Shown: piece by piece, positions 11,249 to 37,400 of the stretch
How the letters are laid out: the number at the start of each line of letters is the position of its first letter
How positions within the stretch are numbered: position 1 is the first letter of the stretch
From: an uncultured Clostridia bacterium
GTDB lineage: Bacteria > Bacillota > Clostridia > CALYAR01
Length of the DNA stretch: 48,971 bases
Assembly (NCBI GenBank): GCA_944393585.1
Contig: CALYAR010000073.1
Coordinates: 1 to 48,971 of the forward strand
Reading direction: 5' to 3'
Program-made: the position numbers and the translations under genes
Notes under the pieces: model-generated
What the model was told of the DNA's origin: nothing
Databases searched by the model: none
What the model saw: only the letters and a program-made list of their open reading frames with translations

Positions 11249-11282
11249 AATCGAGACTTCTGCGGAGGTCTCGATTTTTTTA
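11249..11282 (+). terminator. Rho-independent terminator after the LysR gene
   Basis: Stem AATCGAGAC/GTCTCGATT followed by a T-run. Confidence 0.75.
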
Positions 11283-11320
11283 TAATGAGATTAACAGGAA
11301 TACGAAAGACGGGTGAGAAA

Positions 11321-12352: not shown

Positions 12353-12438
12353 GTTTTTAATTTTATTGTTGTAGAAAACTTTATGCAAATGCAGTTCAGC
12401 TATCCCAGCATTTGCTAAAGAAGAAAAGGAAGTTTGAT

Positions 12439-13269: not shown

Positions 13270-13306
13270 AAAGCAAAAAGGATTTCTATGGAAGGAGATG
13301 TGATAG

Positions 13307-14487: not shown

Positions 14488-15171
14488 ATGAAAAAATTAA
14501 CCGCAATATTTTTATCACTTATGATGGTATTCAGCCTTGCCGCATGCACCAGCGAAAGCCCTTCCACTCCATCTGCCACACCGGATTCGTCTCCATCGGA
14601 GAGTCCTCAGGCTTCCGAACCGGCAAGCACTCCGTCTTCCTCTGCCGCAGTGGAAAGCGAGCCGCAGCCGGAAACGGATGCTGAAACGGGAAAAACCCTG
14701 GTAGTCTATTTTTCAGCTACCGGCAATACCGAAGCAGCGGCAAACTATATTGCTGAAATCACCGGCGGTGACCTGTTTGAATTAGAGCCTGCAGACCCAT
14801 ACACCAACGAGGATCTGAATTGGAGAGATGAGGACAGCCGGGTGGTATATGAGCATGATAACCCGGATGCCCGTGATGTAGAATTGGTAGCGGATACGGT
14901 GGAGAATTGGGACGAGTATGATACTGTATTTATCGGATATCCGATTTGGTGGGGAATCGCCGCGTGGCCGGTAGATACCTTTGTAGAGGCCAACGATTTT
15001 ACCGGAAAAACCGTCATTCCTTTCTGCACCTCCTCTTCTTCCGGTTTGGGGGCAAGCGGGCAGCTTCTGGCGGAGCTGGCCGGAACCGGCGACTGGCAGG
15101 AAGGGCATCGTTTCTCATCCAGAGTGAGTGAAGAAGACGTGCGGAGCTGGCTGACTGGACTGGGCCTGTAA
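14488..15171 (+). CDS. Exported lipoprotein with a flavodoxin-fold domain (Flavodoxin_4-like), canonical FMN P-loop
   Basis: MKKLTAIFLSLMMVFSLAAC lipobox, then an S/P/E-rich linker. The flavodoxin domain has an intact phosphate loop VVYFSATGNTE and a GYPIWWG aromatic motif. AAAGGAG RBS before the ATG at 14488. Confidence 0.85.
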   Translation: MKKLTAIFLSLMMVFSLAACTSESPSTPSATPDSSPSESPQASEPASTPSSSAAVESEPQPETDAETGKTLVVYFSATGNTEAAANYIAEITGGDLFELEPADPYTNEDLNWRDEDSRVVYEHDNPDARDVELVADTVENWDEYDTVFIGYPIWWGIAAWPVDTFVEANDFTGKTVIPFCTSSSSGLGASGQLLAELAGTGDWQEGHRFSSRVSEEDVRSWLTGLGL

Positions 15172-15198
15172 GAAAATGACGGAAAGGAGACATACCCG

Positions 15199-16572
15199 AT
15201 GAAACGGATTATGCCTGTATTTCTGGCTTTTACGTTGTCTTTATGTCTGGCCGCGTGCAGCAATAGCCGGGAACCCTCCTCTCAATCGGTCATTTCAAAT
15301 GAGCAGAACGGTATACAGCAAAGCCAATCGAATATTCTGATTGCCTATGCGCCTGCGGAGGACGGCGATTGCATAGCACAAACGGCTGCCTTGCTCCAGG
15401 AAGCGGTGGGCGGCGATTTGTTCCAGATCGAAGAAGAAGCAGACGGAGACTTTGCCGTCTACGAATTTATTCTGCTGGGGTTTGACACAGAGAACAGTAC
15501 ATTGCCGGAGCACATTCAGGAATTTTTGAAAACCAATCAATTTGGCGCAAAAACCATTATTCCGTTCGTGAGCGGCAGTGAAAATGATTCCGACGCCATT
15601 TTTTCTGCGATTTCGCAGCTTCAGCCCGGCGCCCTGCTGGGGGAAAGTGCACTTCTGTTTACCGCGGACACCAGGGAACAGGAAATTACGGAGTGGGCTC
15701 AAGGATTAAATCTGTCCGATCAGGCCTTTGTCCCGGAAAGCGACGGCGGTAATACCGTTGCAACTGCCTTGGTGACCCCGGAGGTCCAGCAGGTACTGTA
15801 TCTCTGGGAGGAGGACAATGCGCCTGCCGTCACAGAATACACGCAAAACAATGGAGCTTATTCGGATGAACCGGATTTTCGGCCCTACATTACCAGCTTT
15901 CCGGTACCGGATGGGACTGCCGTCAAGGGTGCAGTGCTCATTTGTCCCGGAGGAGCTTTTCAGTTCCGCAGCGACCAGCCGGAAGGCGTGGATGTGGCCG
16001 AGGCACTCAGCGCCCTTGGCTATCAGAGCTTTGTAGTGGATTACCGCCTGCGTCCCTATACACAGCAGGAAGGAGCACTGGATCTGGCACGAGCAGTACG
16101 GTTTGTCCGCGCCCATGCAGAGGAATACGGCATTGCCGAAGACGACATTGCCGTGATGGGGTTTTCTGCCGGTGGAATTTTGAGCGGAGAGATGCTTTTG
16201 AATTTTGACGGGCAAGTCAATGGCACCGCGCTGGACCCGGATTATGTACCGGATCAGCTGGACGAAATATCCGCAGACGCAGCGGCCTGCGGAATGATCT
16301 ATTCTTTCTATGGCCGGCTGAGCGTTGGCACTACGGATGTAGAACTGCTGCGTTCCGGCAACCTGCCGCCTACCTTCTACTGCTACGGCACTCGTGATCC
16401 ATTTTACGAACAATTCCTTGCCAACGCGGATGCAGCAGAGGAAGCCGGTGTTGCCGTAGAACGGCTGCAGCTGGACGATATGCCTCACGGCTTCGGAGCC
16501 AGCGGGGATTGGATTCCTGCCTATGACGAATGGCTGTCGGAAGTTTTTGCAGCTAATGAAGGGAGAATGTAA
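15199..16572 (+). CDS. Exported lipoprotein: degenerate flavodoxin-like N-domain fused to an alpha/beta hydrolase (Aes-type esterase)
   Basis: Lipobox LCLAAC. The N-domain aligns with the flavodoxin paralogs (GGDLFQI..., TIIPFVSGS), but the YFSxTGNT loop is replaced by AYAPAEDGD. The C-domain has GFSAGG and PHGFG alpha/beta hydrolase motifs. Confidence 0.8.
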   Translation: MKRIMPVFLAFTLSLCLAACSNSREPSSQSVISNEQNGIQQSQSNILIAYAPAEDGDCIAQTAALLQEAVGGDLFQIEEEADGDFAVYEFILLGFDTENSTLPEHIQEFLKTNQFGAKTIIPFVSGSENDSDAIFSAISQLQPGALLGESALLFTADTREQEITEWAQGLNLSDQAFVPESDGGNTVATALVTPEVQQVLYLWEEDNAPAVTEYTQNNGAYSDEPDFRPYITSFPVPDGTAVKGAVLICPGGAFQFRSDQPEGVDVAEALSALGYQSFVVDYRLRPYTQQEGALDLARAVRFVRAHAEEYGIAEDDIAVMGFSAGGILSGEMLLNFDGQVNGTALDPDYVPDQLDEISADAAACGMIYSFYGRLSVGTTDVELLRSGNLPPTFYCYGTRDPFYEQFLANADAAEEAGVAVERLQLDDMPHGFGASGDWIPAYDEWLSEVFAANEGRM

Positions 16573-16574
16573 AA

Positions 16575-17108
16575 ATGAATAAAAAAGTTTTGGTTTTGGC
16601 CGGAAGTCCGCGAAAAGGCGGAAATTCGGATTTGCTGTGCGACGAATTAATTCGCGGCGCACAGGAGTCTGGCAATACGGCGGAAAAGATTTATGTGCAG
16701 GATTGGAAGATTGCTCCTTGCCGTGCTTGTTATGCCTGCAGAGGAACGGGAAGCTGTGTGCAGAAGGATGATATGGCGCAGCTTCTGGAAAAAATGATCG
16801 ATGCCGATGTGATTGTTCTGGCAACGCCTGTCTATTTCTATTCCATGGACGGACAGATGAAAACCATGATAGACCGTACACTGCCCAGGTATATGGAGAT
16901 CAAAAACAAGGAATTCTTCCTCATTGCCACTGCCGCCGCCGGTGCGGAGGCAATGGAACGCACCATAGACAGCCTGCGCGGATTTACCGACTGTCTGCCG
17001 AATGCTAAGGTACGGGGTGTGATATATGGAGCCGGCGTTTATCGAAAGGGCGAAGTTGCGCGGACAAAAGCAATGAAAGACGCTTTTCGCGCTGGCCAGT
17101 CTATATAA
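16575..17108 (+). CDS. NAD(P)H-dependent FMN reductase / iron-sulfur flavoprotein (Isf)-like
   Basis: VLVLAGSPRKGGNS flavodoxin-like fold. A compact Cys motif CRACYACRGTGSC (CX2CX2CX5C) resembles the Isf 4Fe-4S site. There is no signal peptide. Confidence 0.85.
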   Translation: MNKKVLVLAGSPRKGGNSDLLCDELIRGAQESGNTAEKIYVQDWKIAPCRACYACRGTGSCVQKDDMAQLLEKMIDADVIVLATPVYFYSMDGQMKTMIDRTLPRYMEIKNKEFFLIATAAAGAEAMERTIDSLRGFTDCLPNAKVRGVIYGAGVYRKGEVARTKAMKDAFRAGQSI

Positions 17109-17187
17109 AAAACGAGATCCATGATCCGGGCGGTCAGCCGGAAGGGGTCTGTTTTCCGTCGATTTACTCGTTTAGAAAGAAGGCAAT

Positions 17188-18555
17188 TTGGAAATAATGG
17201 AGGAACAATCGGAAAAATATCTGTTTGAAGAGATGCCCGTGCCCAAGGCAGTGGCAACTCTCGCGATTCCCACTGTCATCAGTCAGGTAGTCACCATGAT
17301 TTACAATCTGGCGGATACTTTTTTCATCGGCCAGATGGGAGATCCCACTATGGTGGCGGCGGTCTCCCTAGTGTCGCCCTGGTTCAATCTGCTCACTGCC
17401 CTGGGCAATCTGTTCGGCTTGGGCGCAAGCAGCCTCATCTCCCGAATGCTGGGAGCACAAAAACGCGGAGACATCAGACATGTGGCCGCTTTCAGTGTGT
17501 GGGGCGGCGGGGCAGTAACTCTGGTATTTTCACTGGGTACCTATCTGGCCCGCGTCCCGCTGCTGAATTTTCTGGGTGCCAGTTCGGATACTTTTGGCTA
17601 TGCGGAAAGCTATCTGTTCTGGGTGGTGGTATTGGGCGGGGTCCCCACGATGATCAGCTTGGCACTGGGCCATCTGCTGCGAAGCGAGGGGCATGCCAGA
17701 CAGGCCAGCGCCGGCATGATGTTCGGCGGCATCCTGAATGTGGTATTGGACCCAATCCTTATCTTCGGATTCCATATGGATGTTGCGGGAGCGGCCATTG
17801 CAACTGCCTTTTCCAACGCTGCATCGGTAGTGTTCTTTGTCATTCAGTATTTGCGGCTTAGAGACAAAACGGCAGTTTCACTCAACCCGCGGTATTTTAC
17901 GTTCCGGTTTACAGGACCGGTTTTTTCAGTGGGATTGGCTTCGGCTCTGGCCACTACCTTGGGAAACGCTTCCAATATGGTGATGGTGCGGCTCGCTTCC
18001 GGTTACGGGGACATACCTGTGGCGGCATATGGCATTGTAAAGCGCATTGACCAGTTTCCGCTTAACGTCTCCATGGGGCTGTGTCAGGGATTTATGCCTT
18101 TGGTGGGTTATAATTATGCGGCAAAAAATTACCAGCGGATGCGTCGGGTTTCTGTGTTTTCCTGGAAAGCAGCTCTGATCATATCCGCGTGCTTCGTGGC
18201 CTGCTTTGCGGTCTTCGCACCTCAAATTCTCCATTTATTTATTCCAGAGGAGCAGACCAGTACTCTGGACGCCCGGTTTTTGCGCATTGCCTGTCTGGCG
18301 GTGCCGCTGACGTCGGTAAATTTTCTTATCAGCTATACTTTGCAGGCCATGGGCAAAGGAGTGCAATCGGCAGCTCTCACATTCAGCCGCCAGGGACTAA
18401 TCAATATTCCGCTGCTCATGCTGATGAACGTAGTCTTTGGACTGTACGGCATGATCTGGACCCAACTGGTAGTGGAGATCATTATGCTGCCTGTCTCGCT
18501 GGGCATGTATGCACATACTTGGAAGAGGCTGAAACAGCCGGATGAAAAGTCATAA
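17188..18555 (+). CDS. MATE family efflux transporter
   Basis: 12-TM profile. The N-terminus PKAVATLAIPTVISQVVTMIYNLADTFFIGQ is typical of MatE. The start is TTG 17188 or ATG 17197. Confidence 0.9.
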   Translation: MEIMEEQSEKYLFEEMPVPKAVATLAIPTVISQVVTMIYNLADTFFIGQMGDPTMVAAVSLVSPWFNLLTALGNLFGLGASSLISRMLGAQKRGDIRHVAAFSVWGGGAVTLVFSLGTYLARVPLLNFLGASSDTFGYAESYLFWVVVLGGVPTMISLALGHLLRSEGHARQASAGMMFGGILNVVLDPILIFGFHMDVAGAAIATAFSNAASVVFFVIQYLRLRDKTAVSLNPRYFTFRFTGPVFSVGLASALATTLGNASNMVMVRLASGYGDIPVAAYGIVKRIDQFPLNVSMGLCQGFMPLVGYNYAAKNYQRMRRVSVFSWKAALIISACFVACFAVFAPQILHLFIPEEQTSTLDARFLRIACLAVPLTSVNFLISYTLQAMGKGVQSAALTFSRQGLINIPLLMLMNVVFGLYGMIWTQLVVEIIMLPVSLGMYAHTWKRLKQPDEKS

Positions 18556-18639
18556 CCTTTGGGTTTTAACTGCAAAACAAATGGAGACTTCTGTTTAAAG
18601 CGCAAGGAATTATAATAAAGACATAAGGAGATGAAAACG

Positions 18640-19626
18640 ATGCAGACGAGATTGTTAGGTAAGGATTTATCTGTTTCCGCAGTGGGATTGGGCTGCATGG
18701 GTTTTTCTCACGCCTATGGCGCACCCACGGAAGAAAAGGAAGCAGTGCGTCTGCTGCGGCGGGCAGCGGAGATGGGATACACCTTTTTTGATACCGCTGA
18801 GGTTTACGGAACGCCGCAGGATCCCCATATCAATGAACAGTTGGTAGGGGAAGCTCTGGCGCCGGTTCGGGATAAAGTGGTTATTGCCACCAAATTTGGT
18901 TTGCGGTTTGACTTTGAATCCGGCAAAGTGCCGCTTCCCCTGATTCCGGATTCCCGGCCGGAAACCATCCGCAGGTCGGTGGAAGGCTCTCTCAAGCGCC
19001 TGCAGACTGACCACATTGATTTGTACTTTCAGCATCGGATCGACCCCGGCATAGAACCGGAGGAGGTAGCCGGCGTTATGGCTGATCTGATTCGGGAAGG
19101 CAAGATCACCCACTGGGGAATCTCAGAGGCAAATGAAGAATACCTGTGCCGGGCTCATGCTGTCTGTCCAGTGACTGCGGTACAGAACCGCTATTCCATG
19201 ATGGCAAGGCACTATGAACTGCTGTTCCCGGTCCTGGAAGAGCTTGGAGTGGGAATGGTGGCCTTCTCTCCCATGGCAAACGGATTTTTGACCGGCAGAT
19301 ATGGGAAGGGCGGACAGTTTGACACGAAAACAGACTATCGTGCGTCCATGCCTCAGTTCACCGATAAGGGAATAGAACAAAATCAAAAGCTGCTGGAGCT
19401 GCTCCGCGGCATGGCAGAGCAGAAGAACGCCACGCCGGCACAGATTTCCCTGGCATGGATGCTCTGCAAGAAGCCTTGGATTGTGCCCATTCCAGGCACA
19501 AGGAAGGAAGAGCGGATGAGCGAAAATGTCGGCGCTGCCGGTGTGAAGCTCTCTTCCTGTGAGGTAAAAGCTGTGGATGAAGCTTTAGACGGCATGGAAA
19601 TTTCGGCGGTATATGGGGTGGCGTGA
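18640..19626 (+). CDS. Aldo/keto reductase
   Basis: MQTRLLGKDLSVSAVGLGCMGFS, DTAEVYG and HRIDP motifs. The AAGGAG RBS (18625-30) abuts the ORF-track ATG at 18631, so the ATG at 18640 is the better start. Confidence 0.92.
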   Translation: MQTRLLGKDLSVSAVGLGCMGFSHAYGAPTEEKEAVRLLRRAAEMGYTFFDTAEVYGTPQDPHINEQLVGEALAPVRDKVVIATKFGLRFDFESGKVPLPLIPDSRPETIRRSVEGSLKRLQTDHIDLYFQHRIDPGIEPEEVAGVMADLIREGKITHWGISEANEEYLCRAHAVCPVTAVQNRYSMMARHYELLFPVLEELGVGMVAFSPMANGFLTGRYGKGGQFDTKTDYRASMPQFTDKGIEQNQKLLELLRGMAEQKNATPAQISLAWMLCKKPWIVPIPGTRKEERMSENVGAAGVKLSSCEVKAVDEALDGMEISAVYGVA

Positions 19627-19675
19627 CCCCAGTGACCAGTGAGAATACAATTAGTTATAAATGGAGGAATGTACA

Positions 19676-20521
19676 ATGGAGTTCGCTATGTTAAACAATG
19701 GAGTAAAGATGCCCATGGCAGGAATCGGGACTTTCCTTTTGACCCCAGATGAAGCGGAAGCTTCCGTCCTCAGTGCGCTTGAGTGCGGCTACCGTCTGAT
19801 TGACACTGCCAATGCCTATGTGAACGAAAAAGCCGTGGGCAGGGCAATGAGACGTTCCGGGTTGAAACGGGAAGAGATTTTCCTGGAGACCAAATTGTGG
19901 CCCAGCTTCTATGAGCAGCCCGATGCGGTGGAAAAGACACTCAGACGACTGGACACGGATTATATCGATCTGCTGCTCATTCATCAGCCTGCCGGCAATT
20001 ACATTGCTGGATATAAGCTGATGGAAAAGGCTTACAAAGCGGGAAAGGTGAAAGCGATCGGTCTGTCCAACTTTACGGAAAAGCAGATTCAGGAGATTCT
20101 GGATATCTGCGAGGTAAAGCCCGCTGTACTGCAGACAGAGGTACATCCTTATTCGCAGGAGAAGGAATTAAAAAAATTCCTGAATCGGGAAGGCATCGTA
20201 ATCCAGGCATGGTACCCGCTGGGGCATGGAGACAAGGCCCTGATTGAAGAGCCGCTGTTTGCCGAACTGGGCAGAAAGTATGGAAAATCCAATGCTCAGA
20301 TTATTCTGCGGTGGCACATCCAGGATGGAAACATTGTCATTCCGGGTTCGAAGAATCCTGCCCATATTAAAGATAATTTTGACCTGTTCGACTTCTCGCT
20401 CACCGAAGAGGAAATGGCGAAGATTGCCGGCATGGATCAGAAGAAACGCTATTATATCAGCACTCCGGAGCTGCTCAAGGGCTATGCCGAGATGGTGCCT
20501 CCGGTAGATGAACAGAAATAA
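19676..20521 (+). CDS. Aldo/keto reductase (DkgA/YtbE-like)
   Basis: GIGTF..., DTANAY, LLIHQP and GLSNF motifs. The GGAGGA RBS (19663-68) lies 7 nt before the ATG at 19676. Confidence 0.92.
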   Translation: MEFAMLNNGVKMPMAGIGTFLLTPDEAEASVLSALECGYRLIDTANAYVNEKAVGRAMRRSGLKREEIFLETKLWPSFYEQPDAVEKTLRRLDTDYIDLLLIHQPAGNYIAGYKLMEKAYKAGKVKAIGLSNFTEKQIQEILDICEVKPAVLQTEVHPYSQEKELKKFLNREGIVIQAWYPLGHGDKALIEEPLFAELGRKYGKSNAQIILRWHIQDGNIVIPGSKNPAHIKDNFDLFDFSLTEEEMAKIAGMDQKKRYYISTPELLKGYAEMVPPVDEQK

Positions 20522-20539
20522 GGAAAGGAGCAAACACTT

Positions 20540-21097
20540 ATGCGTAAAAATTTTGGAACAAAATCCTGGTTCTATCCGCTGCCGGTGCTGATCATCGGCA
20601 CCTACAGCGAGGACGGAACGGCCGATGCCATGAATGCCGCCTGGGGAGGTCTGTACGACGCGGATAAGGTAGTGCTTTGTTTGAGTGCCGGTCACAGAAC
20701 CACTGCAAACATCAAGGCGAGAGGGGCTTTTACTGTGAGCTTTGCGGATGCGGCCCATGTCGTGGCTTCTGATTATGTGGGAATGGTTTCTGCCAACAGT
20801 GAGCCGCAGAAGATGGAAAAGTCCGGATTCCATTTGACGAAGAGTGAGTTTGTGGATGCGCCCCTCATAGATGAACTGCCGGTGGCGCTGGAATGCAAAT
20901 TGATAAAGGTCAATGAGGACGGCAACATCATTGGCCAGATCGTCAATGTCAGCGTTGACGAAAGCGTTTTGGGAGAAGATGGAAGCATCGATTTTGCCAA
21001 ATTCCGTCCTATTTCCTTTGAGCCTGCGCACAATGCCTACCATGTACTGGGTGAGAAGGCAGGAAACGCTTTCCAGGACGGCAGAAAATTGAAATAA
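20540..21097 (+). CDS. Flavin reductase family protein (FMN-binding split barrel)
   Basis: PLPVLIIGTYSEDGTADAMNAAWGG is typical of the Flavin_Reduct family. AAAGGAG RBS. Confidence 0.88.
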   Translation: MRKNFGTKSWFYPLPVLIIGTYSEDGTADAMNAAWGGLYDADKVVLCLSAGHRTTANIKARGAFTVSFADAAHVVASDYVGMVSANSEPQKMEKSGFHLTKSEFVDAPLIDELPVALECKLIKVNEDGNIIGQIVNVSVDESVLGEDGSIDFAKFRPISFEPAHNAYHVLGEKAGNAFQDGRKLK

Positions 21098-21270
21098 AAA
21101 GCCACCCAAATATTTTGCAAAGCGGAAAAAGCAGATAGGGCGGTTTTCCGGAAGATTTGGGAGGAAAACTTTCCGTCGTTGCAGGCGGCGGTATGTTTTA
21201 ATCAAAATGAGAGAGTACCTGCATTGATATAGAAAGGAAGCGCGCAGCAGCGCTGATTGGGTAACCTGTT

Positions 21271-21978
21271 ATGTTTGTAGTTTGTCACATGTTCACTTCT
21301 TTAGACGGAAAGATCGACGGCGCTTTTTTCTCTGCACCGGAAACAGCACCGGCACTGAAAGCGTATCAAGATCTGCGAGGGTTTTATCACTGCCAGGCCG
21401 CCTTATACGGCACTACAACGATGCTCGGCGGTTACGCCGACGGTCTGGTTCCAGCACTGGAAGAAGATAGGGAAGCATACTCCGAAAAGGATTTTATTAA
21501 TCCGGTGGGGAAAACAATGGGCAACTTCATTGTCTCTGTTGACCCCAAAGGCATGCTGGGATTTTCTTCGCATATCCTGGAGAAAAAAGGGCGGCCGGCG
21601 GCCCATGTGGTTGAGGCGCTGACAGAGCAGGCCTCTCCGGCTTATCTTTCCTATCTGCGCAAGCTGGGGATCTCATATCTGTTTGCCGGCCGGGAACAGC
21701 TGGATTGTGCCCTTCTTCTGGAAAAATTGGCGCATCGGTTTGAGATTCAGAGATTGATGATTGCAGGAGGCGGCACGGTGAACTGGTCATTTGTGCAGGA
21801 GGGCCTGATTGACGAGCTTAGCCTGGTAATTGCTCCGGTGGCGGACGGCAGCACTACTGCTGTGTCGATCTTTGAGAGGGCAGAGTTTCTGCCGCCTCAT
21901 GAACCGACCGCTTTTGTGCTGAAAGAGGCAAAACCTCTTGAGGGAAGCGGGCTTTGGCTTCGGTATGCACGGCAGTGA
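21271..21978 (+). CDS. RibD C-terminal domain / dihydrofolate reductase-like family protein
   Basis: HMFTSLDGKIDG at the N-terminus and IAGGGTVNWSF...DELSLVIAP near the C-terminus are typical of RibD_C. The RBS is weak, so the start is uncertain (21271 or 21289). Confidence 0.8.
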   Translation: MFVVCHMFTSLDGKIDGAFFSAPETAPALKAYQDLRGFYHCQAALYGTTTMLGGYADGLVPALEEDREAYSEKDFINPVGKTMGNFIVSVDPKGMLGFSSHILEKKGRPAAHVVEALTEQASPAYLSYLRKLGISYLFAGREQLDCALLLEKLAHRFEIQRLMIAGGGTVNWSFVQEGLIDELSLVIAPVADGSTTAVSIFERAEFLPPHEPTAFVLKEAKPLEGSGLWLRYARQ

Positions 21979-22026
21979 AAGTCCGGCCGGGGAACAAGAC
22001 AGGAGAACAAGAGGTGAAAAAGGAAG

Positions 22027-22920
22027 ATGAAAAAAAGAAAGCTGCTGCTTTTCCCATTCACTGCCGTTTTGGTTTTGGGCCTTACTGCGTGCGAACATTC
22101 TAATACAGAAGCTTCTCCCACGCAAACAGTGCCGGCAGCGGAGGAGGTTTCCTCTCCGAAGCCGGAAAATGAGGAAAGTATAGAATTGGAAGCTTTGGTG
22201 ACGGAGGGAACGGAAACGTATCGGGATTTTCTTCTGGACAATGTGCTGCATACCGAAGAGCAGGGAGATATTCATTTCAATCTCTATATTCCGGAAGATT
22301 ATGACGGAAGCTCGCCATATGCGCTATTTGTCACTCTCCCCGGTTATGAAGGGCTTTATTTTCAGGGAGTAGGCGCTAATCTCCGATCAGAAGAATACGG
22401 CTTTGAAGCGCAGAAGTACAACGAGAAAATGATCATCGCCGCCCCGCAGCTTGGTGACTGGGGCGAAACGTCGGCGAACCAGGCCATCGCACTGACGGAA
22501 TACCTCCTCGGCCATTACAACATTGATCCGGAAAAAGTATACCTGCACGGACTGTCCGGAGGCGGGGAGACAGGCTCTCTGGTGATGGGAAAACGGCCGG
22601 AACTGTACACGGCTTATCTTGCCACCAGCACCCAATGGGACGGCGATTTGGAGCAGTTGGCTGAAGCGGAAACACCGGTCTATCTGGCAGTGGGTGAGGA
22701 TGACAGCTATTACGGTTCTGAGCCGCTCAAGCAGGCTTATGCAGAACTGAAAGCTCTTTATGAGGAAAAGGGATTGTCTGAGGAAGAGATTAACGAGCTT
22801 TTAGTTCTTGACGTGAAAGATCAGGATTATTTTTCTCAGCGCGGTTATTCCGACCAGCACGCCGGAGGCCTGGCCTTCGCCTTTGATGAAACGATCATGG
22901 GCTGGCTGTTTGGCAAATAA
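22027..22920 (+). CDS. Exported lipoprotein, alpha/beta hydrolase (esterase)
   Basis: MKKRKLLLFPFTAVLVLGLTAC lipobox. Nucleophile elbow LHGLSGGG. The fold pattern is esterase/PHB-depolymerase-like. Confidence 0.8.
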   Translation: MKKRKLLLFPFTAVLVLGLTACEHSNTEASPTQTVPAAEEVSSPKPENEESIELEALVTEGTETYRDFLLDNVLHTEEQGDIHFNLYIPEDYDGSSPYALFVTLPGYEGLYFQGVGANLRSEEYGFEAQKYNEKMIIAAPQLGDWGETSANQAIALTEYLLGHYNIDPEKVYLHGLSGGGETGSLVMGKRPELYTAYLATSTQWDGDLEQLAEAETPVYLAVGEDDSYYGSEPLKQAYAELKALYEEKGLSEEEINELLVLDVKDQDYFSQRGYSDQHAGGLAFAFDETIMGWLFGK

Positions 22921-23361
22921 AGACGCGGAAAGACAGGAAGCAAATGACGGAGCGAACTGCGTTCCACCTCCTTTTGCTGCCGGCAGGCCGCCAATGCAGG
23001 GGAAAGAGATATAAGCGCGCTCTTAGCTGTTCCAATGCTGCAAATCAAATTACAAGCGGAACGATGACGAATATCGGACGGATACAATAATGCTGCCAAA
23101 CAACCTTCCCAGGCAGGAATTCTGGGATGAATCTGTCCGACGTTTGATTCCGGCAATGGTAAGAGATGGAGCAATTTCCAGTTGCTATGGCCATGGGATG
23201 TGCTTTTTGATCAGGAAAAGGGCTGATACTGTCTTGGATATCCAAATAGATCGGCGGTTATAAAAGGATATCCTTTGAAGAAAATCAGCGGCAGTATGGC
23301 CAATATGGAAGATGATAGAATTGAAAATAACGTGAGTCGAAAGAGATTGTATTTTGCGTTT

Positions 23362-23397
23362 AGAAAGAACGGCCATTGGAAAGCGGCCGTTCTTTCT
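23362..23397 (+). terminator. 13-bp perfect hairpin in a decayed intergenic region (weak terminator candidate)
   Basis: AGAAAGAACGGCC/GGCCGTTCTTTCT with a 10-nt loop. There is no clean T-run after it. Confidence 0.3.
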
Positions 23398-23746
23398 ATG
23401 TATAACAGATGCTTCCGCAATTTAAAGCCGCCCCAGATAGATCAAAAACAGATAAGACGATACGGTCTGGATTGATTTACAATCACCAAATTCCAGAGCA
23501 TATATGATATTTGCTCCTTGCCTTAGCAGACAAACTGCTCTGGGCCTTCTGCTTACCAATAAATCTCGAATTTGTTTTCCGTTTTAGCAGGGAACGTTTG
23601 ATGCAAATATGCCGATTGCGGCACAGCGATGAGGCTCTTATCCATTGATTCCATGCTTATCTGCGAATATATATTCTTTTTGTTGCTTTTCAGGCATGAG
23701 ATTATTATAATAAGAATGGAATTTGCCTACAATGGGAGGGATGTAT

Positions 23747-24646
23747 ATGGAAATCCGAGTCCTGCGCTATTTTTTGACTGTGGTACGGGAAGAAAGCATC
23801 ACACGGGCAGCAGACGTACTGCACATTACACAGCCTACTCTGAGCCGACAGCTGGCACAAATGGAAGATGAGATGGGGGTCAAACTGTTTGACCGTGGAA
23901 CAAGAAAGATTGTTCTTACGAACGAAGGACTTTTGCTGCGCCGCCGGGCAGAAGAAATTTTAGAACTGGTGGATAAAACGGAAAAAGAACTGACAGAGCA
24001 GGATGAAATGGTCGAAGGAACCGTATCGATCGGATGCGGTGACCTGGCGGCAGTGCAGATGCTGCCGGAGCTGTTTCGCTCCTTTCACGAACGGTATCCG
24101 TCTGTTTCATTTGATCTATATACTGCCACTGCCGACCATGTAAAAGATCGAATGGATCGGGGGCTGACGGATATGGGGCTGTTATTGGAACCGGTCAATA
24201 TCGAAAAGTACGACTTTATCCGCATGGACCAGCGGGAGCAGTGGGTAGCTGTCATGCATCCGGATTCTCCCTTGGCTAAGCTCGATCGTATTACCCCTCA
24301 AGATTTAAAAGATCTTCCTTTGATTCTGCCAAAGCGGATCAATGTTCAGAGCGAAGTAGCGAACTGGTTTGGAGCTGATTTGAGCCAGCTGAATATTCTA
24401 TTTACTTCGAATCTTCCATCCAATAGCTCCATCATGGTGTATAATAAATTGGCATACTCGATTATTATCAAGGGCTCGATCTCCTTCTGGGACAGTCAGA
24501 AGATTACCTACCGGCCGTTGTACCCGGAACTTACCGCAACCAGCGTTTTAGCATGGAAACGAAAGCAGCCCTTTGGTTTGGCGGCCGCAAAATTCATCCA
24601 GTATGCAAAAGACTGCCTGCTTGCAGAGCATGAGAATACAGATTGA
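23747..24646 (+). CDS. LysR family transcriptional regulator
   Basis: MEIRVLRYFLTVVREESITRAADVLHITQPTLSRQLAQME HTH. The GGGAGGG RBS lies 6 nt before the ATG at 23747. Confidence 0.9.
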   Translation: MEIRVLRYFLTVVREESITRAADVLHITQPTLSRQLAQMEDEMGVKLFDRGTRKIVLTNEGLLLRRRAEEILELVDKTEKELTEQDEMVEGTVSIGCGDLAAVQMLPELFRSFHERYPSVSFDLYTATADHVKDRMDRGLTDMGLLLEPVNIEKYDFIRMDQREQWVAVMHPDSPLAKLDRITPQDLKDLPLILPKRINVQSEVANWFGADLSQLNILFTSNLPSNSSIMVYNKLAYSIIIKGSISFWDSQKITYRPLYPELTATSVLAWKRKQPFGLAAAKFIQYAKDCLLAEHENTD

Positions 24647-24706
24647 GCCATATGATACTCCGAAAATTCATGCCTAAAAAGCATTTAATTGTATGAAAAA
24701 CAAGTA

Positions 24707-24736
24707 TTAGACATGGAAAATTTTCCGATTTATAAT
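24707..24736 (+). promoter_or_regulatory. MerR-type promoter candidate with a dyad operator in an over-long spacer
   Basis: -35 TTAGAC (24707-12), an 18-nt spacer and -10 TATAAT (24731-36). The spacer contains the perfect 12-bp palindrome GGAAAATTTTCC (24715-26). The site lies about 65 nt upstream of the MerR start. Confidence 0.45.
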
Positions 24737-24800
24737 GTAAGTGCAGCGGAGAAGAAGCATTTCCGTTTGCACTTACTTTATTTTTGGCAAAAATGGAGGA

Positions 24801-25172
24801 ATGGTGATGACCTTACAGGAGGCAAGCAGACGGTTTCATTTGAAATTGGATATGCTCCAGCTGTATGAAGAAAACGGTCTGTTAAAGAGAATGAAAACAA
24901 AAGATGGAACTGTCGATTATCCGGAGTCGGAACTGCATCGTGCCTCCCACTTGTATTTTCTGGAGAAAGCTGGAATGGATTTGGATACACTGAAGCGATT
25001 TGTAAAACTTTCGGAAAAAGGAAGCAGTACAGAACAAATCCAGCTTTTACGCAAATGCAGGCATCAACTTCTGGAGGAAATCCATCGAAAACAGCAGTCG
25101 CTTGATCAATTAGATTATCTCATCTATGAGATAAAAAATCCAAAGAGTCAAAAGGAGGATCGACTTCTATGA
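24801..25172 (+). CDS. MerR family transcriptional regulator
   Basis: MerR HTH pattern (TLQEASRRFHLKLDMLQLYEENGLL) plus a C-terminal coiled-coil. GGAGGA RBS; the start is ATG 24801 or 24807. Its stop overlaps the next gene's start (ATGA). Confidence 0.8.
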   Translation: MVMTLQEASRRFHLKLDMLQLYEENGLLKRMKTKDGTVDYPESELHRASHLYFLEKAGMDLDTLKRFVKLSEKGSSTEQIQLLRKCRHQLLEEIHRKQQSLDQLDYLIYEIKNPKSQKEDRLL

Positions 25173-26299
25173 AACGATTTACCGCAGTTATACTGGCTGT
25201 GGGGCTGATTTTTTCTCTGGCGGCCTGCCAAAATCAAGATGATGAACCGCCGTCCGTCAGTACCCCGTCGGCAGAGAACCAGGAACCTGCTGCGTCTGCT
25301 GAACCTGCAGAGCAGGACCTCACGCAATCAGAAATACCGGAGACTAAGAGTATATTAATCGCTTACTTTTCCCTGGGCCGTAATGCCGATTCCCCCAAAG
25401 ACATTGATGCCAGTACATCGGCAAGCCTTGTGATGGATGGAGAAGAACAAATGGGAACCACGGAATATGTAGCACATTTGATTCAGGACAATGTGGGCGG
25501 GGATCTCCATTCCATTCAAACTTTAGACCCCTATTCTTCGGATTTTGATACCGTGGTGGATCAAAACCACGAAGAACAGGATGCCGGTACCCTGCCTGTG
25601 CTGATGACCAGCGATTTGGATGTTTCCCAATACGATATTGTGTTTATTGGATATCCTATTTGGGCTACCAGTGCTCCGCAGGCCGTCTTTTCCTTCCTCT
25701 CTCAATATGATCTGTTCGGAAAAACATTGATTCCCTTCTGTACTCATGATGGGTACGGTGCAGGCAGCAGCTATAAGGACATTGCAGACGCTGTCAGCGG
25801 AGCAAGGGAGGTCTTAGACGGATTGGCTGTTGAGGCGTCGGACGTGCCCGATTCTGAAGAAACCGTTGCCGAGTGGCTGCGGAGTATTGATATAGAGCAG
25901 CAGTCTGAGACTGCCAATCAGTCTGGGGAAACGGCAATTACCATTTCGATCGGCGATACTGTGCTGGACGGCGTATTATATAACACGGCTCTGGCAAACG
26001 AAATTCAGCAGTATTTTCCGCTGACGATTTCTATGACGGGCTTTGGCGGAAGAGAATATTATGGAGGTGTAGATTTCTATCTGGAGAATGCAGAAGGCGG
26101 GCAAAAAAATTTTGAAAACGGTGATATCACATATTGCCAAGCTCATCACAACATGGCGATATTTTACGCACAGACCGATGATCCTGATCTTTCCGTAGAG
26201 GTAATTCCCATAGGGAAAGTGACATCTGATCTTGGCATATTCCATGAACTTCCGGGCAGTGTGGAAATCACATTCGCTCTGGCGGATTCGTTAATTTGA
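25169..26299 (+). CDS. Exported lipoprotein: flavodoxin-fold domain fused to a cyclophilin-like domain
   Basis: Lipobox FSLAAC, then an acidic P/E/S linker. The flavodoxin-fold domain has a split P-loop (AYFS...DIDASTSAS...GTTE) and GYPIWA. The C-terminal about 120 aa (ITISIGDTVLDGVLYNTALANEI...GDITYCQAHHNMAIFY...IPIGKV) matches the cyclophilin-like family pattern. Confidence 0.8.
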   Translation: MKRFTAVILAVGLIFSLAACQNQDDEPPSVSTPSAENQEPAASAEPAEQDLTQSEIPETKSILIAYFSLGRNADSPKDIDASTSASLVMDGEEQMGTTEYVAHLIQDNVGGDLHSIQTLDPYSSDFDTVVDQNHEEQDAGTLPVLMTSDLDVSQYDIVFIGYPIWATSAPQAVFSFLSQYDLFGKTLIPFCTHDGYGAGSSYKDIADAVSGAREVLDGLAVEASDVPDSEETVAEWLRSIDIEQQSETANQSGETAITISIGDTVLDGVLYNTALANEIQQYFPLTISMTGFGGREYYGGVDFYLENAEGGQKNFENGDITYCQAHHNMAIFYAQTDDPDLSVEVIPIGKVTSDLGIFHELPGSVEITFALADSLI

Positions 26300-26322
26300 T
26301 TTAAGACAGGAGGAAATCCATC

Positions 26323-27108
26323 ATGAAAAAATTTTTGATTATCTTTACGGCGTGTATCTTGACTTTAATTTTGGCGGCCTGCAGTGAAAATAGTACGTCC
26401 GGCGATTCACAGCCCGAACCGACTCCAAGCAGTTCTCAGATAAGCGTGCCGCAAACGCCTTCTTCTGAGCCGGAAGATCCTGAACCGTTGCCTGCGGAGC
26501 CTTCCTCCGCATTGTCTGATGAGGAGCAGCCAGCGGAAGAAGAGGAAACGGAAACAAATATGCTGGTTGCTTATTTCAGCTATGCCGAGAATGCAGATTT
26601 GCCGGATGATGTAGATGCGTCCGCCTCGGCAAGCATTCAGGCCTGGAACGGCGAGATCACAGGCAACACCGGTGTAGTGGCCGCCATGATTGCCGAAGCA
26701 ACCGGTGCGGACCTGTTCTCCATTCAAACGGTAGAAAAATACCCTGATACCTATGATGCAACCATTAACCAGGGACAGGAAGAACGCAATCAAGACGCCC
26801 GACCAGAGCTTGCTTCTCATCTGGAAAATACAGAAAGCTATGATGTCATTTTCCTGGGCTTTCCCAATTGGTGGGGAGACATGCCAATGGCGGTATACAG
26901 TTTTTTGGATGAAGTGGATCTTTCGGGTAAGACCATTGTGCCATTTGTCACTTCCGGCGGCAGCGGATTCTCCAATACCATTCGTACGATTGAAAGCCTG
27001 GAATCCGGCGCAGCCGTCCAGCAGGGACTATCCGTCAGCGCCTCCAGTGCCGCAGGTGCACAGGATCAGGTCAATGAATGGCTCAGCGGACTGGGATATG
27101 CAGGGTAA
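26323..27108 (+). CDS. Exported lipoprotein with a flavodoxin-fold domain (long P-loop insert)
   Basis: Lipobox LILAAC, an acidic linker, AYFSYAENADLPDDVDASASASIQAWNGEITGNTG, then GFPNWWG and VPFVTSGGSG. Confidence 0.85.
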   Translation: MKKFLIIFTACILTLILAACSENSTSGDSQPEPTPSSSQISVPQTPSSEPEDPEPLPAEPSSALSDEEQPAEEEETETNMLVAYFSYAENADLPDDVDASASASIQAWNGEITGNTGVVAAMIAEATGADLFSIQTVEKYPDTYDATINQGQEERNQDARPELASHLENTESYDVIFLGFPNWWGDMPMAVYSFLDEVDLSGKTIVPFVTSGGSGFSNTIRTIESLESGAAVQQGLSVSASSAAGAQDQVNEWLSGLGYAG

Positions 27109-27122
27109 AAGGAGCGGTTATT

Positions 27123-28094
27123 TTGAAAAAACGTATTCTTGGAAAACAAAATTCATTGACAGTTTCTGAAATCGGCATGGGCTGCATGGGATTCAGCCAT
27201 GGCTATGGCCCAGGACCAGGGCGGAATGAGTCTATCCAGCTGATCCGGACTGCCTACGATTTGGGCTGTACTTTCTTTGACACGGCAGAAGGGTATGCAG
27301 CCGGCGAAAACGAAAGGCTGGTCGGCGAGGCAATCAAACCATTCCGGCACGAGGTGATCCTCGCCACAAAGCTGCATATTCCAGAGGAGGGAGACTTGGA
27401 AACCGCCATTCGAAAACATCTGGACGACTCTCTCTTCCGGCTGGGATGCGACTATGTGGATCTGTATTACCAGCACCGGGTCAATAAGAATATTCCAGTT
27501 GAAGAAGTGGCCGGCGTCATGGGCAAGCTCATTGACGAAGGCAAGATTCGCGGCTGGGGGCAGTCTCAGGCTTCAAACAGTGAGATCCGCCGGGCACATG
27601 CTGTTACTCCGATCACGGCGATTCAAAGCGAGTATTCCTTGATGGAGCGGATGTTTGAAAAGGATGTGCTTCCTGCATGCAGGGAGCTTGGCATTGGCTT
27701 TGTCCCCTTCTCTCCGCTGGGAGCAGGTTTCCTGAGCGGCAGATATACCAGCAAAGACATCTATACCGGTGACGATGTTCGCCGCGTCATTACCCGCTTT
27801 TCCAAAGACAATATGGATGCCAATCAGCCGCTGCTGGATTTGCTCCATCGGTTTGCACATGAAAAAGGCGCAACTCCAGCGCAGATTTCACTGGCCTGGA
27901 TGCTGCACAAATGGGATTTTTTAGTACCCATTCCCGGTATGCGGAAGGCGGAGCGAATCAGGGAGAATTTTGGCTCTGCGGATGTGGTGCTCACCCATGA
28001 GGAATTTGGGCGGCTGGAAGCAGAACTTGCCCGAATGAATATCTACGGAAACCGAACCGATGAGGATATTGCCAAGCTGCGGGATATGATTTGA
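27123..28094 (+). CDS. Aldo/keto reductase
   Basis: The TTG at 27123 lies 8 nt after the AAAGGAG RBS (27108-14). The ORF-track start at 27078 would overlap the upstream gene. Motifs GMGCMGFS, DTAEGY and HRVN are present. There is no signal peptide. Confidence 0.9.
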   Translation: MKKRILGKQNSLTVSEIGMGCMGFSHGYGPGPGRNESIQLIRTAYDLGCTFFDTAEGYAAGENERLVGEAIKPFRHEVILATKLHIPEEGDLETAIRKHLDDSLFRLGCDYVDLYYQHRVNKNIPVEEVAGVMGKLIDEGKIRGWGQSQASNSEIRRAHAVTPITAIQSEYSLMERMFEKDVLPACRELGIGFVPFSPLGAGFLSGRYTSKDIYTGDDVRRVITRFSKDNMDANQPLLDLLHRFAHEKGATPAQISLAWMLHKWDFLVPIPGMRKAERIRENFGSADVVLTHEEFGRLEAELARMNIYGNRTDEDIAKLRDMI

Positions 28095-28152
28095 ATGAAG
28101 ATCGGGAGCGAGCATTTGAATCAAAAATTTTATGGGAAAGAAGGAATATTTT

Positions 28153-28890
28153 ATGAGAAAAATTACGGCACTGCTTATAGCATTTGTTTTGACTTTTTCT
28201 TTTGCTGGATGCAGTTCCAATCAAGAGGAGCAGAAACCGGCTGAAAGTCCATCCAACCGCGCAGAGCCTGCTCCCTCAGAATCGCCGTCTGGTTCTGAAA
28301 CTTCTGCGCCGGCGGATGACTCCTCACAGGGACAGTCTGCCGGCGATGAAAGCAATATACTGGTGGCATATTTTTCCTGGGCTGACAATGCTGTGATCGA
28401 GGGAGATGTGGACGCTGTGACTTCTCCCAGCGTTACTGCTCCCGGCAATGTACAGCAGCTTGCCGGATGGGTGCAGGAAAAAACAGGCGGCGATTTGTTC
28501 TCAATTCAGGTGACAGAACCGTATCCCAGCGGTTGGGATGAATGCCTGGAACGAGCCAATCAGGAGCGGGCAGAAGATGCCCGGCCGGAGCTTACGGCCG
28601 CTGTAGAAAATATGAACGACTACGATACGGTCTTTCTGGGTTACCCCAACTGGTGGTATGGGGCACCGATGGCACTTTTGTCTTTTCTGGAAGAAAACGA
28701 CCTGTCGAATAAGCAGATCTATCTGTTTTGTTCTCATGGCACAGGGGGTCTTGCAGGAAGTGTAGAGGATATTCAAGCGGTACTGCCGGACAGCGCCGTG
28801 CTCTCTGACAATGTCTTTGACGTGTACGAAGAAGAGGCAGCATCTTCACAGAATGCTATTTTGGATTGGCTGGCAGAACTGGGATATTGA
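28153..28890 (+). CDS. Exported lipoprotein with a flavodoxin-fold domain (long P-loop insert)
   Basis: MRKITALLIAFVLTFSFAGC lipobox, an S/P/E linker, AYFSWADNAVIEGDVDAVTSPSVTAPGNV, then GYPNWWYG and LFCSHGTGG. Confidence 0.85.
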   Translation: MRKITALLIAFVLTFSFAGCSSNQEEQKPAESPSNRAEPAPSESPSGSETSAPADDSSQGQSAGDESNILVAYFSWADNAVIEGDVDAVTSPSVTAPGNVQQLAGWVQEKTGGDLFSIQVTEPYPSGWDECLERANQERAEDARPELTAAVENMNDYDTVFLGYPNWWYGAPMALLSFLEENDLSNKQIYLFCSHGTGGLAGSVEDIQAVLPDSAVLSDNVFDVYEEEAASSQNAILDWLAELGY

Positions 28891-28958: not shown

Positions 28959-29654
28959 TTGAAACCGAAAATGATGTTAAAAATGTCCATAGATTTTGTC
29001 ATGACAGTTCTGCTTCTCTGCCAGATGGCTTATATGCTCATTGGAGAGACAGCGCATGAATGGATGGGAACGGCTTTGTTTCTGCTGTTTATCCTGCACC
29101 ATATTCTCAACTGGAGATGGTATAAAAATTTATCCGCAGGAAAGTACAGTGCTGTTCGGATTTTGCAGACTATAGTTGATTTTTTGGTACTCTTCTCCAT
29201 GATTGGCCTGATGATCAGCGGCATTATGATGTCCAGGGAGGTGTTTGCTTTCCTGCCGATCGGCGGAGGAATGGGATTTGCCCGAATTCTGCACATGCTG
29301 ACCGCCTATTGGGGATTCATTTTTATGAGTATCCATCTCGGACTGCACTGGGGGATGATTATGAGCATGATACGGAAGCTGAGCGGTACATCTAAGATAG
29401 TCCCTGTCCGAACCTGGATATTACGGGTGCTGGCAGTCATAATCTGCTGCTTTGGTATATATTCCTTTTTCAGACACAACATTGCCGACTATCTGTTTGT
29501 ACGCAGTCAGTTCGTATTTTTTGATTTGGAACAGCCGCTTATACTGTTTTTTGGAGAATACCTGGCCATGATGGGCCTGTGGGTCTGTATCGCATACTAT
29601 GCAGTCCGGTTGATATCAAAATGCACAGGAAAAAAGCCAATTAAAAAAGGCTAA
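28959..29654 (+). CDS. DUF4405-like polytopic membrane protein with conserved intramembrane histidines (possible b-type cytochrome)
   Basis: About 6 TM segments. His residues sit in or near TM helices (ETAHEW, FILHHILNW, RILHML, SIHLGLHW), matching the DUF4405 N-terminal pattern. The start is uncertain (TTG 28959 or the ATGs at 28971, 28974 or 28983). Confidence 0.7.
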   Translation: MKPKMMLKMSIDFVMTVLLLCQMAYMLIGETAHEWMGTALFLLFILHHILNWRWYKNLSAGKYSAVRILQTIVDFLVLFSMIGLMISGIMMSREVFAFLPIGGGMGFARILHMLTAYWGFIFMSIHLGLHWGMIMSMIRKLSGTSKIVPVRTWILRVLAVIICCFGIYSFFRHNIADYLFVRSQFVFFDLEQPLILFFGEYLAMMGLWVCIAYYAVRLISKCTGKKPIKKG

Positions 29655-37386: not shown

Positions 37387-37400
37387 GGAGAGTGATAGGT

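Follow-up and report, generated by a model that had tools for sequence, protein, structure and literature searches.

The window, a stretch of 48,971 nucleotides on contig CALYAR010000073.1 (assembly GCA_944393585.1) from an uncultured Clostridia bacterium, carries five genes for lipoproteins with a flavodoxin-type domain, designated here A to E. All five lie on the forward strand. A (14488..15171) has a short-type Flavodoxin_4 domain, and B (15199..16572) consists of a degenerate flavodoxin-like N-terminal domain joined to an alpha/beta-hydrolase (Abhydrolase_3/BD-FAE). C (25169..26299), D (26323..27108) and E (28153..28890) have an insertion-type Flavodoxin_4 domain, which in C is followed by a C-terminal Cyclophil_like2 domain. 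The gene of E stands immediately 5' of a gene for a DUF4405 membrane protein, and genes for an ApbE-family protein and an EetB homolog follow further downstream. These genes are examined here as parts of a putative extracytosolic electron-transfer system.

Export signals and domain types of A to E

The open reading frames (ORFs) of A to E are each preceded by a Shine-Dalgarno-like sequence before the chosen ATG, and their products share one signal layout, with K or R in the n-region, an uncharged h-region, and a lipobox with its cysteine. The signal of A is MKKLTAIFLSLMMVFSLAAC, with the lipobox LAAC; those of B, C and D end in LCLAAC, FSLAAC and LILAAC, and that of E ends in FSFAGC, with the lipobox FAGC. 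The calls were made by regular-expression match to a Gram-positive lipoprotein pattern from the literature, and they bear out an earlier note on this DNA, in which all five proteins had been said to open with LAAC or FAGC. The signal is no chance feature: among the 120 closest relatives of D, 108 keep the lipobox, and among 120 relatives of A, 118 do, the remainder being truncated or near misses.

Counting the esterases at 11321 and 22027 and the ApbE protein at 35993, the window holds eight lipobox proteins; five is the correct number for the flavodoxin-type lipoproteins, and eight replaces it as the number for the window. None of the eight has a twin arginine (RR) in its first 12 residues. 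Tat export of the window lipoproteins was rejected, as the motif S/T-R-R-x-F-L-K was not found in their n-regions, and for A to E the lack of a twin arginine points to the Sec/Lgt/Lsp route. A to E are, by prediction, extracytoplasmic, surface-tethered flavodoxin-fold proteins sent out by the Sec/lipoprotein route. Proteins in that location must meet both flavin and an electron donor outside the cytoplasm, and on these points the lipoprotein signals of all five agree with what had been proposed earlier.

An S/P/E-rich tether had also been described for all five. The share of S, P, E, T, A, Q and D in the 50 residues after the cysteine is 0.94 in A, 0.88 in D, 0.80 in E and 0.74 in C, and the description fits these four; it does not fit B (0.62), in which the linker is short and S/N/Q-rich. 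The domain assignment divides in the same way. Against the Pfam family Flavodoxin_4 (PF12682), with a curated cutoff of 24 bits, A scores 144.7 bits, D 93.2, E 74.2 and C 67.3. The match of B stays below the cutoff at 22.8 bits and covers just the C-terminal half of the profile. Models of classical cytoplasmic flavodoxins (FldA, flav_short and flav_long) matched with just 15-20 bits against cutoffs of 123-315, and with these scores and lipoprotein signals in all five proteins, an identity as classical cytoplasmic flavodoxins (Flavodoxin_1) was rejected.

Pairwise identity to A is 26-39%. A to E are not one uniform set of paralogs: A is short (NCBIfam PRK07116-like), C, D and E are of the insertion type (PRK06934-like), and B is degenerate. 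The related fold in the earlier description thus stands, and the uniformity of the five does not. The notion of a diversified family is borne out by the different domain types and fusion partners, the latter being the hydrolase on B and the Cyclophil_like2 domain on C (65 bits).

The flavinylation-type insertion and the members without it

Huang, Meheust, Barquera and Light (mSystems 2024; PMC11334425) described Flavodoxin_4 proteins that have extra residues inserted between beta1 and alpha1 as ApbE substrates carrying covalent flavin mononucleotide (FMN), with a [S/T]GA[S/T]-like motif in the insertion. The proteins tested for flavinylation were A. xylanovorans SHO45324.1 and D. lacus WP_073032509.1, and the label was gone in Ser/Thr-to-Ala mutants (PMC11334425). 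In C, D and E, 22-27 residues are inserted between Y-F-S and G-N-T, in alignment with the insertion of SHO45324.1; the insertion is not present in A, B or 3KLB-type proteins. A 27-residue insertion was found in 113 of the 115 relatives of D whose flanking motifs could be located.

Within the insertion, C reads D80-A-S-T-S-A-S86 (DIDASTSAS) and D reads D98-A-S-A-S-A-S104 (DVDASASAS). E has the variant D87-A-V-T-S-P-S93 (DVDAVTSPS), whose x-S-P-S form recurs among relatives. The predicted FMN acceptors are Ser86 in C (nucleotides 25424-25426), Ser104 in D (26632-26634) and Ser93 in E (28429-28431). They were assigned by a motif rule, and because neither PMC11334425 nor its supplement gives the number of the mutated residue, the acceptor position is one that we infer.

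When GTDB representative genomes were scanned with the C/D/E domain, 78 related loci were obtained. Matches of 88-90% were to metagenome-assembled genomes of uncultured Eisenbergiella and Lachnospiraceae. One of the 78, the A. xylanovorans locus L044, contains at 9815-10549 an ORF that is exactly SHO45324.1. This protein carries AVAENSDVDAVSSAS as its insertion, with the motif DVDAVSSAS, and also has the lipobox VMTAC and a linker of low complexity; its identity to the domain of D is 48%. The D-A-x-x-S-[A/P]-S motifs of C, D and E match its DAVSSAS column for column, and the column of the putative acceptor serine holds S in 57 of 61 family representatives. A comparison was made at 41 positions whose conservation among 61 single-domain representatives of the family is 75% or more: the validated SHO45324.1 has 38 matches, compared with 39 in C, 38 in D, 35 in E, 26 in A and 21 in B.

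An AlphaFold2 model of the D domain, with a predicted local distance difference test (pLDDT) score of 88.3, places beta1 at residues 6-10, the insertion at 11-40 and alpha1 at 41-53, and its confidence dips near the motif. In a Foldseek search, the model gave target-normalised template modeling (TM) scores of 0.78-0.84 to 4ICI, 4J8P and 3KLB. A motif scan of the exported window proteins found an ApbE-like motif only in C, D and E. These three are predicted additions to the ApbE-flavinylated Flavodoxin_4 class described in 2024, and covalent FMN is suggested for C and D and, with less certainty, for E.

A has the canonical phosphate loop S-A-T-G-N-T and no beta1-alpha1 insertion. It matches the flavoprotein 4ICI with 132 bits and is also related to 3KLB, a structure determined with bound FMN; the motif scan found no ApbE-type flavinylation motif in it. 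Since the insertion is absent, the binding of FMN by A is predicted to be non-covalent, and A to E would accordingly not share one mechanism. The loop S-S-G-L-G-A-S was considered as another flavinylation site in A and rejected, as close relatives read G-L-G-E-S and the D at -6 is missing. Among 120 relatives of A, 98 are tandem proteins of about 393 residues with an A-type domain behind an insertion-type domain, which suggests that the two kinds of domain are functionally linked.

In B, the hydrolase part is well defined (Abhydrolase_3, 54.4 bits, with the nucleophile elbow GFSAGG). The flavodoxin-like part lacks the P-loop glycine, has D-x-E in place of P-x-W, and misses the phosphate loop, P-x-W-W and a segment of about 35 residues. 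With these FMN-binding motifs lost, B is probably no flavoprotein through its flavodoxin-like domain, and its earlier inclusion among the flavoproteins is not upheld.

The cyclophilin-like domain of C comprises residues 251-376 (nucleotides 25919-26299) and was modeled with a pLDDT of 93.7. In a fold search, its nearest matches were TM1367 (TM score 0.82) and AF2241, two proteins whose functions are not known; KslB and McbB, Pictet-Spenglerases that bind small molecules, matched at a greater distance. A sequence search of the Protein Data Bank gave no match. These matches allow no transfer of function, and a literature search on the function of Cyclophil_like2 found nothing relevant. The family has an invariant cysteine (nucleotides 26135-26137 in C) followed by A-H-H, in the context I-T-Y-C-x-A-H-H-N-M-A-I-F-Y, and also a G-G-R-E-Y-Y-G-G motif. 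The invariant cysteine and A-H-H could form a catalytic or metal site. Apparent stand-alone matches to the domain are mostly fragments of fused proteins.

Partner genes and the conserved cassette

The DUF4405 gene (28959..29654, forward strand) lies directly 3' of E, with an uncertain start codon (28959-29001). Its product matches PF14358 with 54.4 bits against a cutoff of 26.7 and has about five or six hydrophobic segments, and its histidines H33, H47, H112, H126 and H130 do not vary in any of 48 homologs with 32-76% identity. The DUF4405 class, with about six transmembrane helices and four centrally placed conserved histidines, consists of heme-b cytochromes, and heme b binding has been shown for a homolog (PMC11334425). 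The window protein is predicted to be a di-heme b-type cytochrome that moves electrons across the membrane, and its position directly after E offers a probable answer, within the window, to the question of electron supply.

The ApbE-family FAD:protein FMN transferase (35993..37024, forward strand; PF02424, 294.6 bits) has a lipobox of its own, MAGC. Its stop is overlapped by the start of a gene for a small membrane-anchored NusG_II-domain protein (37021..37386, forward strand; PF07009, 85.9 bits). We take the NusG_II domain to denote EetA, and the protein is probably EetA. An EetB homolog follows, an ECF-S-like subunit for the export of flavin adenine dinucleotide (FAD) (37260..37898, forward strand; PF07456, 131.2 bits), the true start of which is probably a GTG at about 37392, just past the NusG_II gene. 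No ECF-T or ECF-A genes were found in the window. PF07456 is the family that defines eetB, a gene with eetA as a neighbour in 3,328 genomes and apbE in 2,169 (PMC9973259), and gene clusters of apbE, DUF4405, flavinylated Flavodoxin_4 and a Listeria-type flavin transporter have been reported (PMC11334425). With the genes at 35993, 37021 and 37260, the question of flavin supply likewise finds a probable answer within the window.

The profile of the C/D/E domain retrieved 10,863 clusters at 50% identity (E <= 1e-3), of which 1,383 had E <= 1e-30. The best 150 clusters comprise 87 with a lipobox, 48 with another hydrophobic N-terminus and 15 with neither, several of the latter being truncated. Fusions among 88 long representatives involve Cyclophil_like2 (31), Big_2 (11), SLH (8), Cu_amine_oxidN1 (6), DUF4405 (3), ApbE (1) and several esterases. 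Those with SLH, Big_2 and Cu_amine_oxidN1 speak for a location at the surface, and those with DUF4405 and ApbE are Rosetta-stone links of the flavodoxins to both partners. As the commonest fusion partner, the cyclophilin-like domain is the best candidate for a module on the acceptor side, a role that is put forward as speculation.

In the neighbourhood of the flavodoxin gene, DUF4405 was found at 48 of the 78 related loci, at 32 of them within 300 bp and on the same strand. Other neighbours were aldo/keto reductases (AKRs, 34), LysR (32), FMN_red (24), ApbE (20, within 10 kb), Fe-containing alcohol dehydrogenases (Fe-ADHs, 20) and MerR (19). A comparison of apbE presence with motif presence in windows of +/-10 kb across the loci showed no clear pattern.

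The first cluster of the window reads LysR, esterase, short-chain dehydrogenase/reductase (SDR), Fe-ADH, A, B, FMN_red, MATE, two AKRs, Flavin_Reduct, RibD_C and esterase. It is headed by the LysR-family regulator identified by Pfam (10313..11206, forward strand), with a promoter-like site at 10053 and a terminator-like site at 11248. The first esterase (11321..12352, forward strand; BD-FAE/Abhydrolase_3) is a lipoprotein with the lipobox FTGC, and the Fe-ADH, also a Pfam assignment (13307..14473, forward strand), stands immediately 5' of A. A lipoprotein esterase of the Peptidase_S9-like type (22027..22920, forward strand; lipobox LTAC) closes the cluster, and together with B the island encodes three surface esterases. 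The FMN_red-family protein is cytoplasmic (16575..17108, forward strand; PF03358, 88.8 bits) and contains the motif CRACYACRGTGSC (CxxCxxCx5C, residues 49-61), which is kept in 15 of 16 homologs from the related loci and, in our reading, resembles the [4Fe-4S] motif of iron-sulfur flavoproteins. The protein is a candidate cytoplasmic donor to DUF4405.

A MerR-family regulator (24741..25172, forward strand; PF13411) heads the unit of C, D, AKR, E and DUF4405; its stop codon overlaps the start of C, and a promoter-like site with 11 of 12 matches precedes it at 24708-24736. The cytoplasmic AKR (27078..28094, forward strand; PF00248, 232.7 bits) is encoded between D and E. Its ORF overlaps the 3' end of D by 31 nucleotides (27078-27108), and the true start is probably a downstream codon. 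A second Fe-ADH copy lies after DUF4405 at 29927-31099. The operon boundaries rest on gene spacing, since a terminator scan gave 29 sites against 22 expected from shuffled sequence, which is no enrichment.

A cassette syntenic with the first cluster recurs elsewhere. The tandem flavodoxin P0206, with an A-type domain behind one of the insertion type, has entries in 352 blocks of the assembly collection, and the four places shown (L079-L082, all metagenome contigs, 4754-13897) share one widespread gut cassette. It consists of LysR, a BD-FAE esterase, Fe-ADH, the tandem flavodoxin, an esterase, DUF4405, a flavodoxin, FMN_red, AKR and an S9 esterase; both flavodoxin proteins and the last two esterases are lipoproteins. 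In this order FMN_red is one gene from DUF4405 and the ortholog of the esterase at 22027 ends the cassette. Identity to the window orthologs is 68% for LysR, 73% for the first esterase, 79% for the Fe-ADH in the same position, 76% for the A-type domain and 58% for FMN_red. Some copies among L079-L082 have a TnpV and a sigma-70 region-2 gene upstream, and the L079-type cassette may therefore be mobile.

The locus of SHO45324.1 contains a BD-FAE esterase with 65% identity to the one at 11321, a second lipoprotein esterase, MerR, and an Fe-ADH with 64% identity to the second copy in the window. Near the SHO45324.1 gene, L044 also encodes at 14720-15238 a Flavodoxin_4 protein of 172 residues without a signal peptide, so that cytosolic and exported members coexist in one neighbourhood. 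Overall, the context of esterases, Fe-ADH, AKR, MATE and LysR/MerR suggests the handling of diet-derived esters, carbonyls or quinones.

Further genes of the window were noted outside these units. Between the DUF4405 operon and apbE, an AraC-family regulator is followed by an HbpS-like (heme-degrading/GlcG-type) protein (31453-32869), and it is conceivable that the latter is linked to heme supply for the cytochrome. Small ORFs at 33268-33651 and 35228-35608 (127 and 126 residues) contain hydrophobic G/V/I-rich stretches and gave no significant family match. The island is flanked by giant SLH-anchored surface proteins of 2791 and 1620 residues (1546-9921 and 38641-43503) with heparinase II/III-like C-terminal domains, beta-helix and Ig-like repeats, which are probably wall-tethered polysaccharide lyases.

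Proposed electron transfer at the cell surface and known systems

The region likely codes for an extracytosolic electron-transfer system of the DUF4405/ApbE type, with surface-tethered Flavodoxin_4 lipoproteins as its basis. In such a system, A to E would be exported unfolded by Sec, lipidated at the lipobox cysteine and tethered by a flexible linker on the outer side of the membrane. EetB, probably together with the NusG_II/EetA-like protein, would export FAD, and the ApbE lipoprotein would move FMN to the last serine of D-A-x-x-S-[A/P]-S, that is Ser86 of C, Ser104 of D and probably Ser93 of E. By homology to the flavinylated SHO45324.1, the attached flavin would settle in the conserved flavodoxin pocket and could not diffuse off. 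The DUF4405 di-heme b cytochrome would pass electrons through the membrane to the flavodoxins, as gene context and fusions suggest, and candidate cytoplasmic sources are FMN_red at 16575, Flavin_Reduct at 20540, or quinol. A would bind FMN non-covalently and join the same chain, given that its type is fused behind the insertion type in most relatives. The flavodoxin-like domain of B may be a non-redox module on a surface esterase. As the most likely terminal acceptors, small diet-derived electrophiles, or carbonyl or quinone compounds, at the cell surface are proposed speculatively. The proposal draws on the frequency of the cyclophilin-like fusion, on the esterases at the surface and on Fe-ADH and AKR in the cytoplasm, with LysR and MerR controlling them all.

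Several observations weigh against this system. The gene for ApbE belongs to a separate transcription unit about 7 kb downstream, at a distance of some six or seven genes from E; the co-localisation rule used in PMC11334425 is five genes on either side, and the window apbE is near or outside this range. The motif deviates from [S/T]GA[S/T], with Ser standing where the canonical form has Gly and, in E, with Pro at -1. Validation of the S-A-S form depends on the mutated serine of SHO45324.1 being the inferred one. Around SHO45324.1 itself, neither DUF4405 nor apbE was found within 10 kb. The L079 cassette has three exported flavodoxin domains, all of them without the motif, and no apbE within 8 kb. 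No clear preference of any flavodoxin subtype for a place beside DUF4405 emerged from a comparison with mixed results, in which the regular-expression classing left 56 ORFs unclassified. Both the electron donor and the acceptor are at the stage of candidates, the localisation of A to E is a sequence pattern prediction, and the evidence on C, D and E consists of sequence and models, the experiments being on relatives.

Another reading agrees with the proposed transfer system through the DUF4405 step and differs just in the last one. The exported flavodoxin domains would be terminal enzymes, surface WrbA/NQO-like two-electron reductases of quinones, azo or nitro compounds fed by DUF4405. The operons are without a dedicated reductase gene bearing a signal peptide, and MerR/LysR control, a MATE pump, AKRs and Fe-ADHs resemble an electrophile-stress regulon. 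D and E have secondary matches to FMN_red and Flavodoxin_2 (NQO-type), and the Foldseek matches that come after the Flavodoxin_4 structures are WrbA, SsuE, PnpB and AzoR; yet the secondary matches are mostly at or below curated cutoffs, and the TM score to WrbA is about 0.45-0.5. The tandem and triple flavodoxins and the cyclophilin-like fusion (31 of 88) look more like a relay plus effector, and a role as terminal enzymes is regarded as possible but doubtful. It is unlikely that A to E bind flavin non-covalently or not at all, with ApbE serving other substrates and the insertion of C, D and E being structural. The placement of apbE 7 kb off in another operon, the departure from [S/T]GA[S/T], the existence of exported motif-less flavodoxins linked to DUF4405, and the presence of apbE within 10 kb at just 20 of 78 loci would fit such an arrangement. 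On the other hand, SHO45324.1 with the same S-S-A-S form is flavinylated in a Ser-dependent manner (PMC11334425), the acceptor-serine column is conserved in 57 of 61 representatives, no further exported window protein has a candidate ApbE motif, and one Flavodoxin_4-ApbE fusion exists.

Gram-positive substrate-binding proteins are typically lipoproteins on flexible linkers, and gut anaerobes often need external flavins; A to E might in principle be flavin-binding or scavenging lipoproteins for storage or uptake instead of redox proteins. The adjoining genes encode a cytochrome and oxidoreductases and no ABC or ECF importers, the recurrent linkage and fusion with DUF4405 argues for electron transfer, and covalent attachment would defeat flavin delivery, which makes scavenging very improbable. 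It is scarcely credible that the signal peptides are start-codon artefacts and A to E cytoplasmic flavodoxins. A ribosome-binding site precedes each chosen start, the linker is in frame and the architecture conserved, the lipobox recurs in 108 of 120 and 118 of 120 relatives, and about 90% of 150 representatives have a lipobox or hydrophobic N-terminus, some together with SLH or Big_2.

The motif-less flavodoxins bear on a remark in PMC11334425 that extracytosolic Flavodoxin_4 proteins show flavinylation and that cytosolic ones are unflavinylated. Exported motif-less domains stand beside DUF4405 in L079, so that the link to the cytochrome does not require covalent flavin, and the remark is to be qualified. 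A wider model would have two working forms of exported Flavodoxin_4, the covalent form of C, D and E and the non-covalent form of A and the motif-less L079 tandems, constituting with DUF4405 a widespread surface reducing module of gut Firmicutes in the LysR/MerR cassette. The esterases would free diet compounds, the flavodoxins, with the cyclophilin-like domain as a newly recognised partner for substrate binding or catalysis, would reduce them outside the cell, and Fe-ADH and AKR would finish inside. We consider this model rather improbable; if true, it would contradict the current picture, in which flavinylation goes with an extracytosolic location.

Extracytosolic flavinylated flavodoxins and DUF4405 cytochromes have been recognised just since 2024, with no physiological function assigned. 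The biochemical role of such proteins had earlier been called not established; this has been overtaken by the demonstration of covalent flavinylation for the class (PMC11334425) and continues to hold for physiological role and acceptor. Literature searches on flavodoxin lipoproteome or lipobox and on extracellular, periplasmic or secreted flavodoxin returned nothing relevant beyond Huang et al. 2024. The window is a compact case with every predicted component, namely three carriers predicted to be covalent, one predicted to be non-covalent, one degenerate domain, cytochrome, ApbE and EetB, and abundant gut Clostridia carry the same kind of cassette. The search for donor and substrates is narrowed by its esterases, Fe-ADH, AKRs, LysR/MerR regulators and FMN reductase of the Fe-S type. 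Exported members without the motif are common, and the view that flavodoxins become usable outside the cell through covalent attachment has to be qualified accordingly. In practice, the case is of value as a guide for experiments and not as a new principle.

Among known systems, MsrQ/MsrP and the PepSY-like cytochromes with a ferric-reductase domain also have a small multi-His di-heme b membrane protein that feeds an extracytoplasmic partner, and a structural analogy of DUF4405 to MsrQ/PepSY-like cytochromes is drawn in PMC11334425. In contrast to MsrQ/MsrP, DUF4405 is without detectable sequence-family membership, and its partner is a flavodoxin, not a molybdoenzyme. The non-covalent Flavodoxin_4 structures from structural genomics (3KLB, 4ICI and 4J8P from Bacteroides, 3EDO from Lactobacillus) are alike in fold, phosphate loop, P-x-W-W and the T-S-G-G-S-G loop. 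They differ as crystallised chains of 156-171 residues with no tether shown and no insertion; A is of the same domain type but a lipoprotein.

The flavin-based extracellular electron transfer system of Listeria monocytogenes (FmnB/ApbE, PplA, EetA, EetB, FmnA and Ndh2) likewise uses a lipoprotein with covalent FMN set by an ApbE-family lipoprotein, with FAD supplied via EetB, and the window shares with it apbE, an eetA-like gene and eetB. The genes fmnA, ndh2 and dmk of the Listeria system were not found in the window. The carrier in the window has a flavodoxin fold instead of FMN_bind, and the membrane step is assigned to a DUF4405 b-type cytochrome instead of Ndh2 and demethylmenaquinone.

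The closest likeness is to the ApbE-flavinylated Flavodoxin_4 proteins SHO45324.1 and WP_073032509.1 (PMC11334425). C, D and E share with them PF12682, the insertion with a motif of the D-A-x-x-S-A-S type and the occurrence in Firmicutes, further the lipoprotein signal and low-complexity linker (seen in SHO45324.1) and the association with apbE, DUF4405 and eetB. The window differs in its five copies per island, the cyclophilin-like fusion of C, the Pro at -1 in E and the distance of 7 kb to apbE, and its A and B are without the defining insertion and motif. The main text of PMC11334425 makes no mention of the conserved context of esterase, Fe-ADH, AKR and LysR/MerR. Modest additions to that text are an A type that is exported without the motif, a B with a degenerate domain, the frequency of cyclophilin-like fusions, and the conserved cassette.

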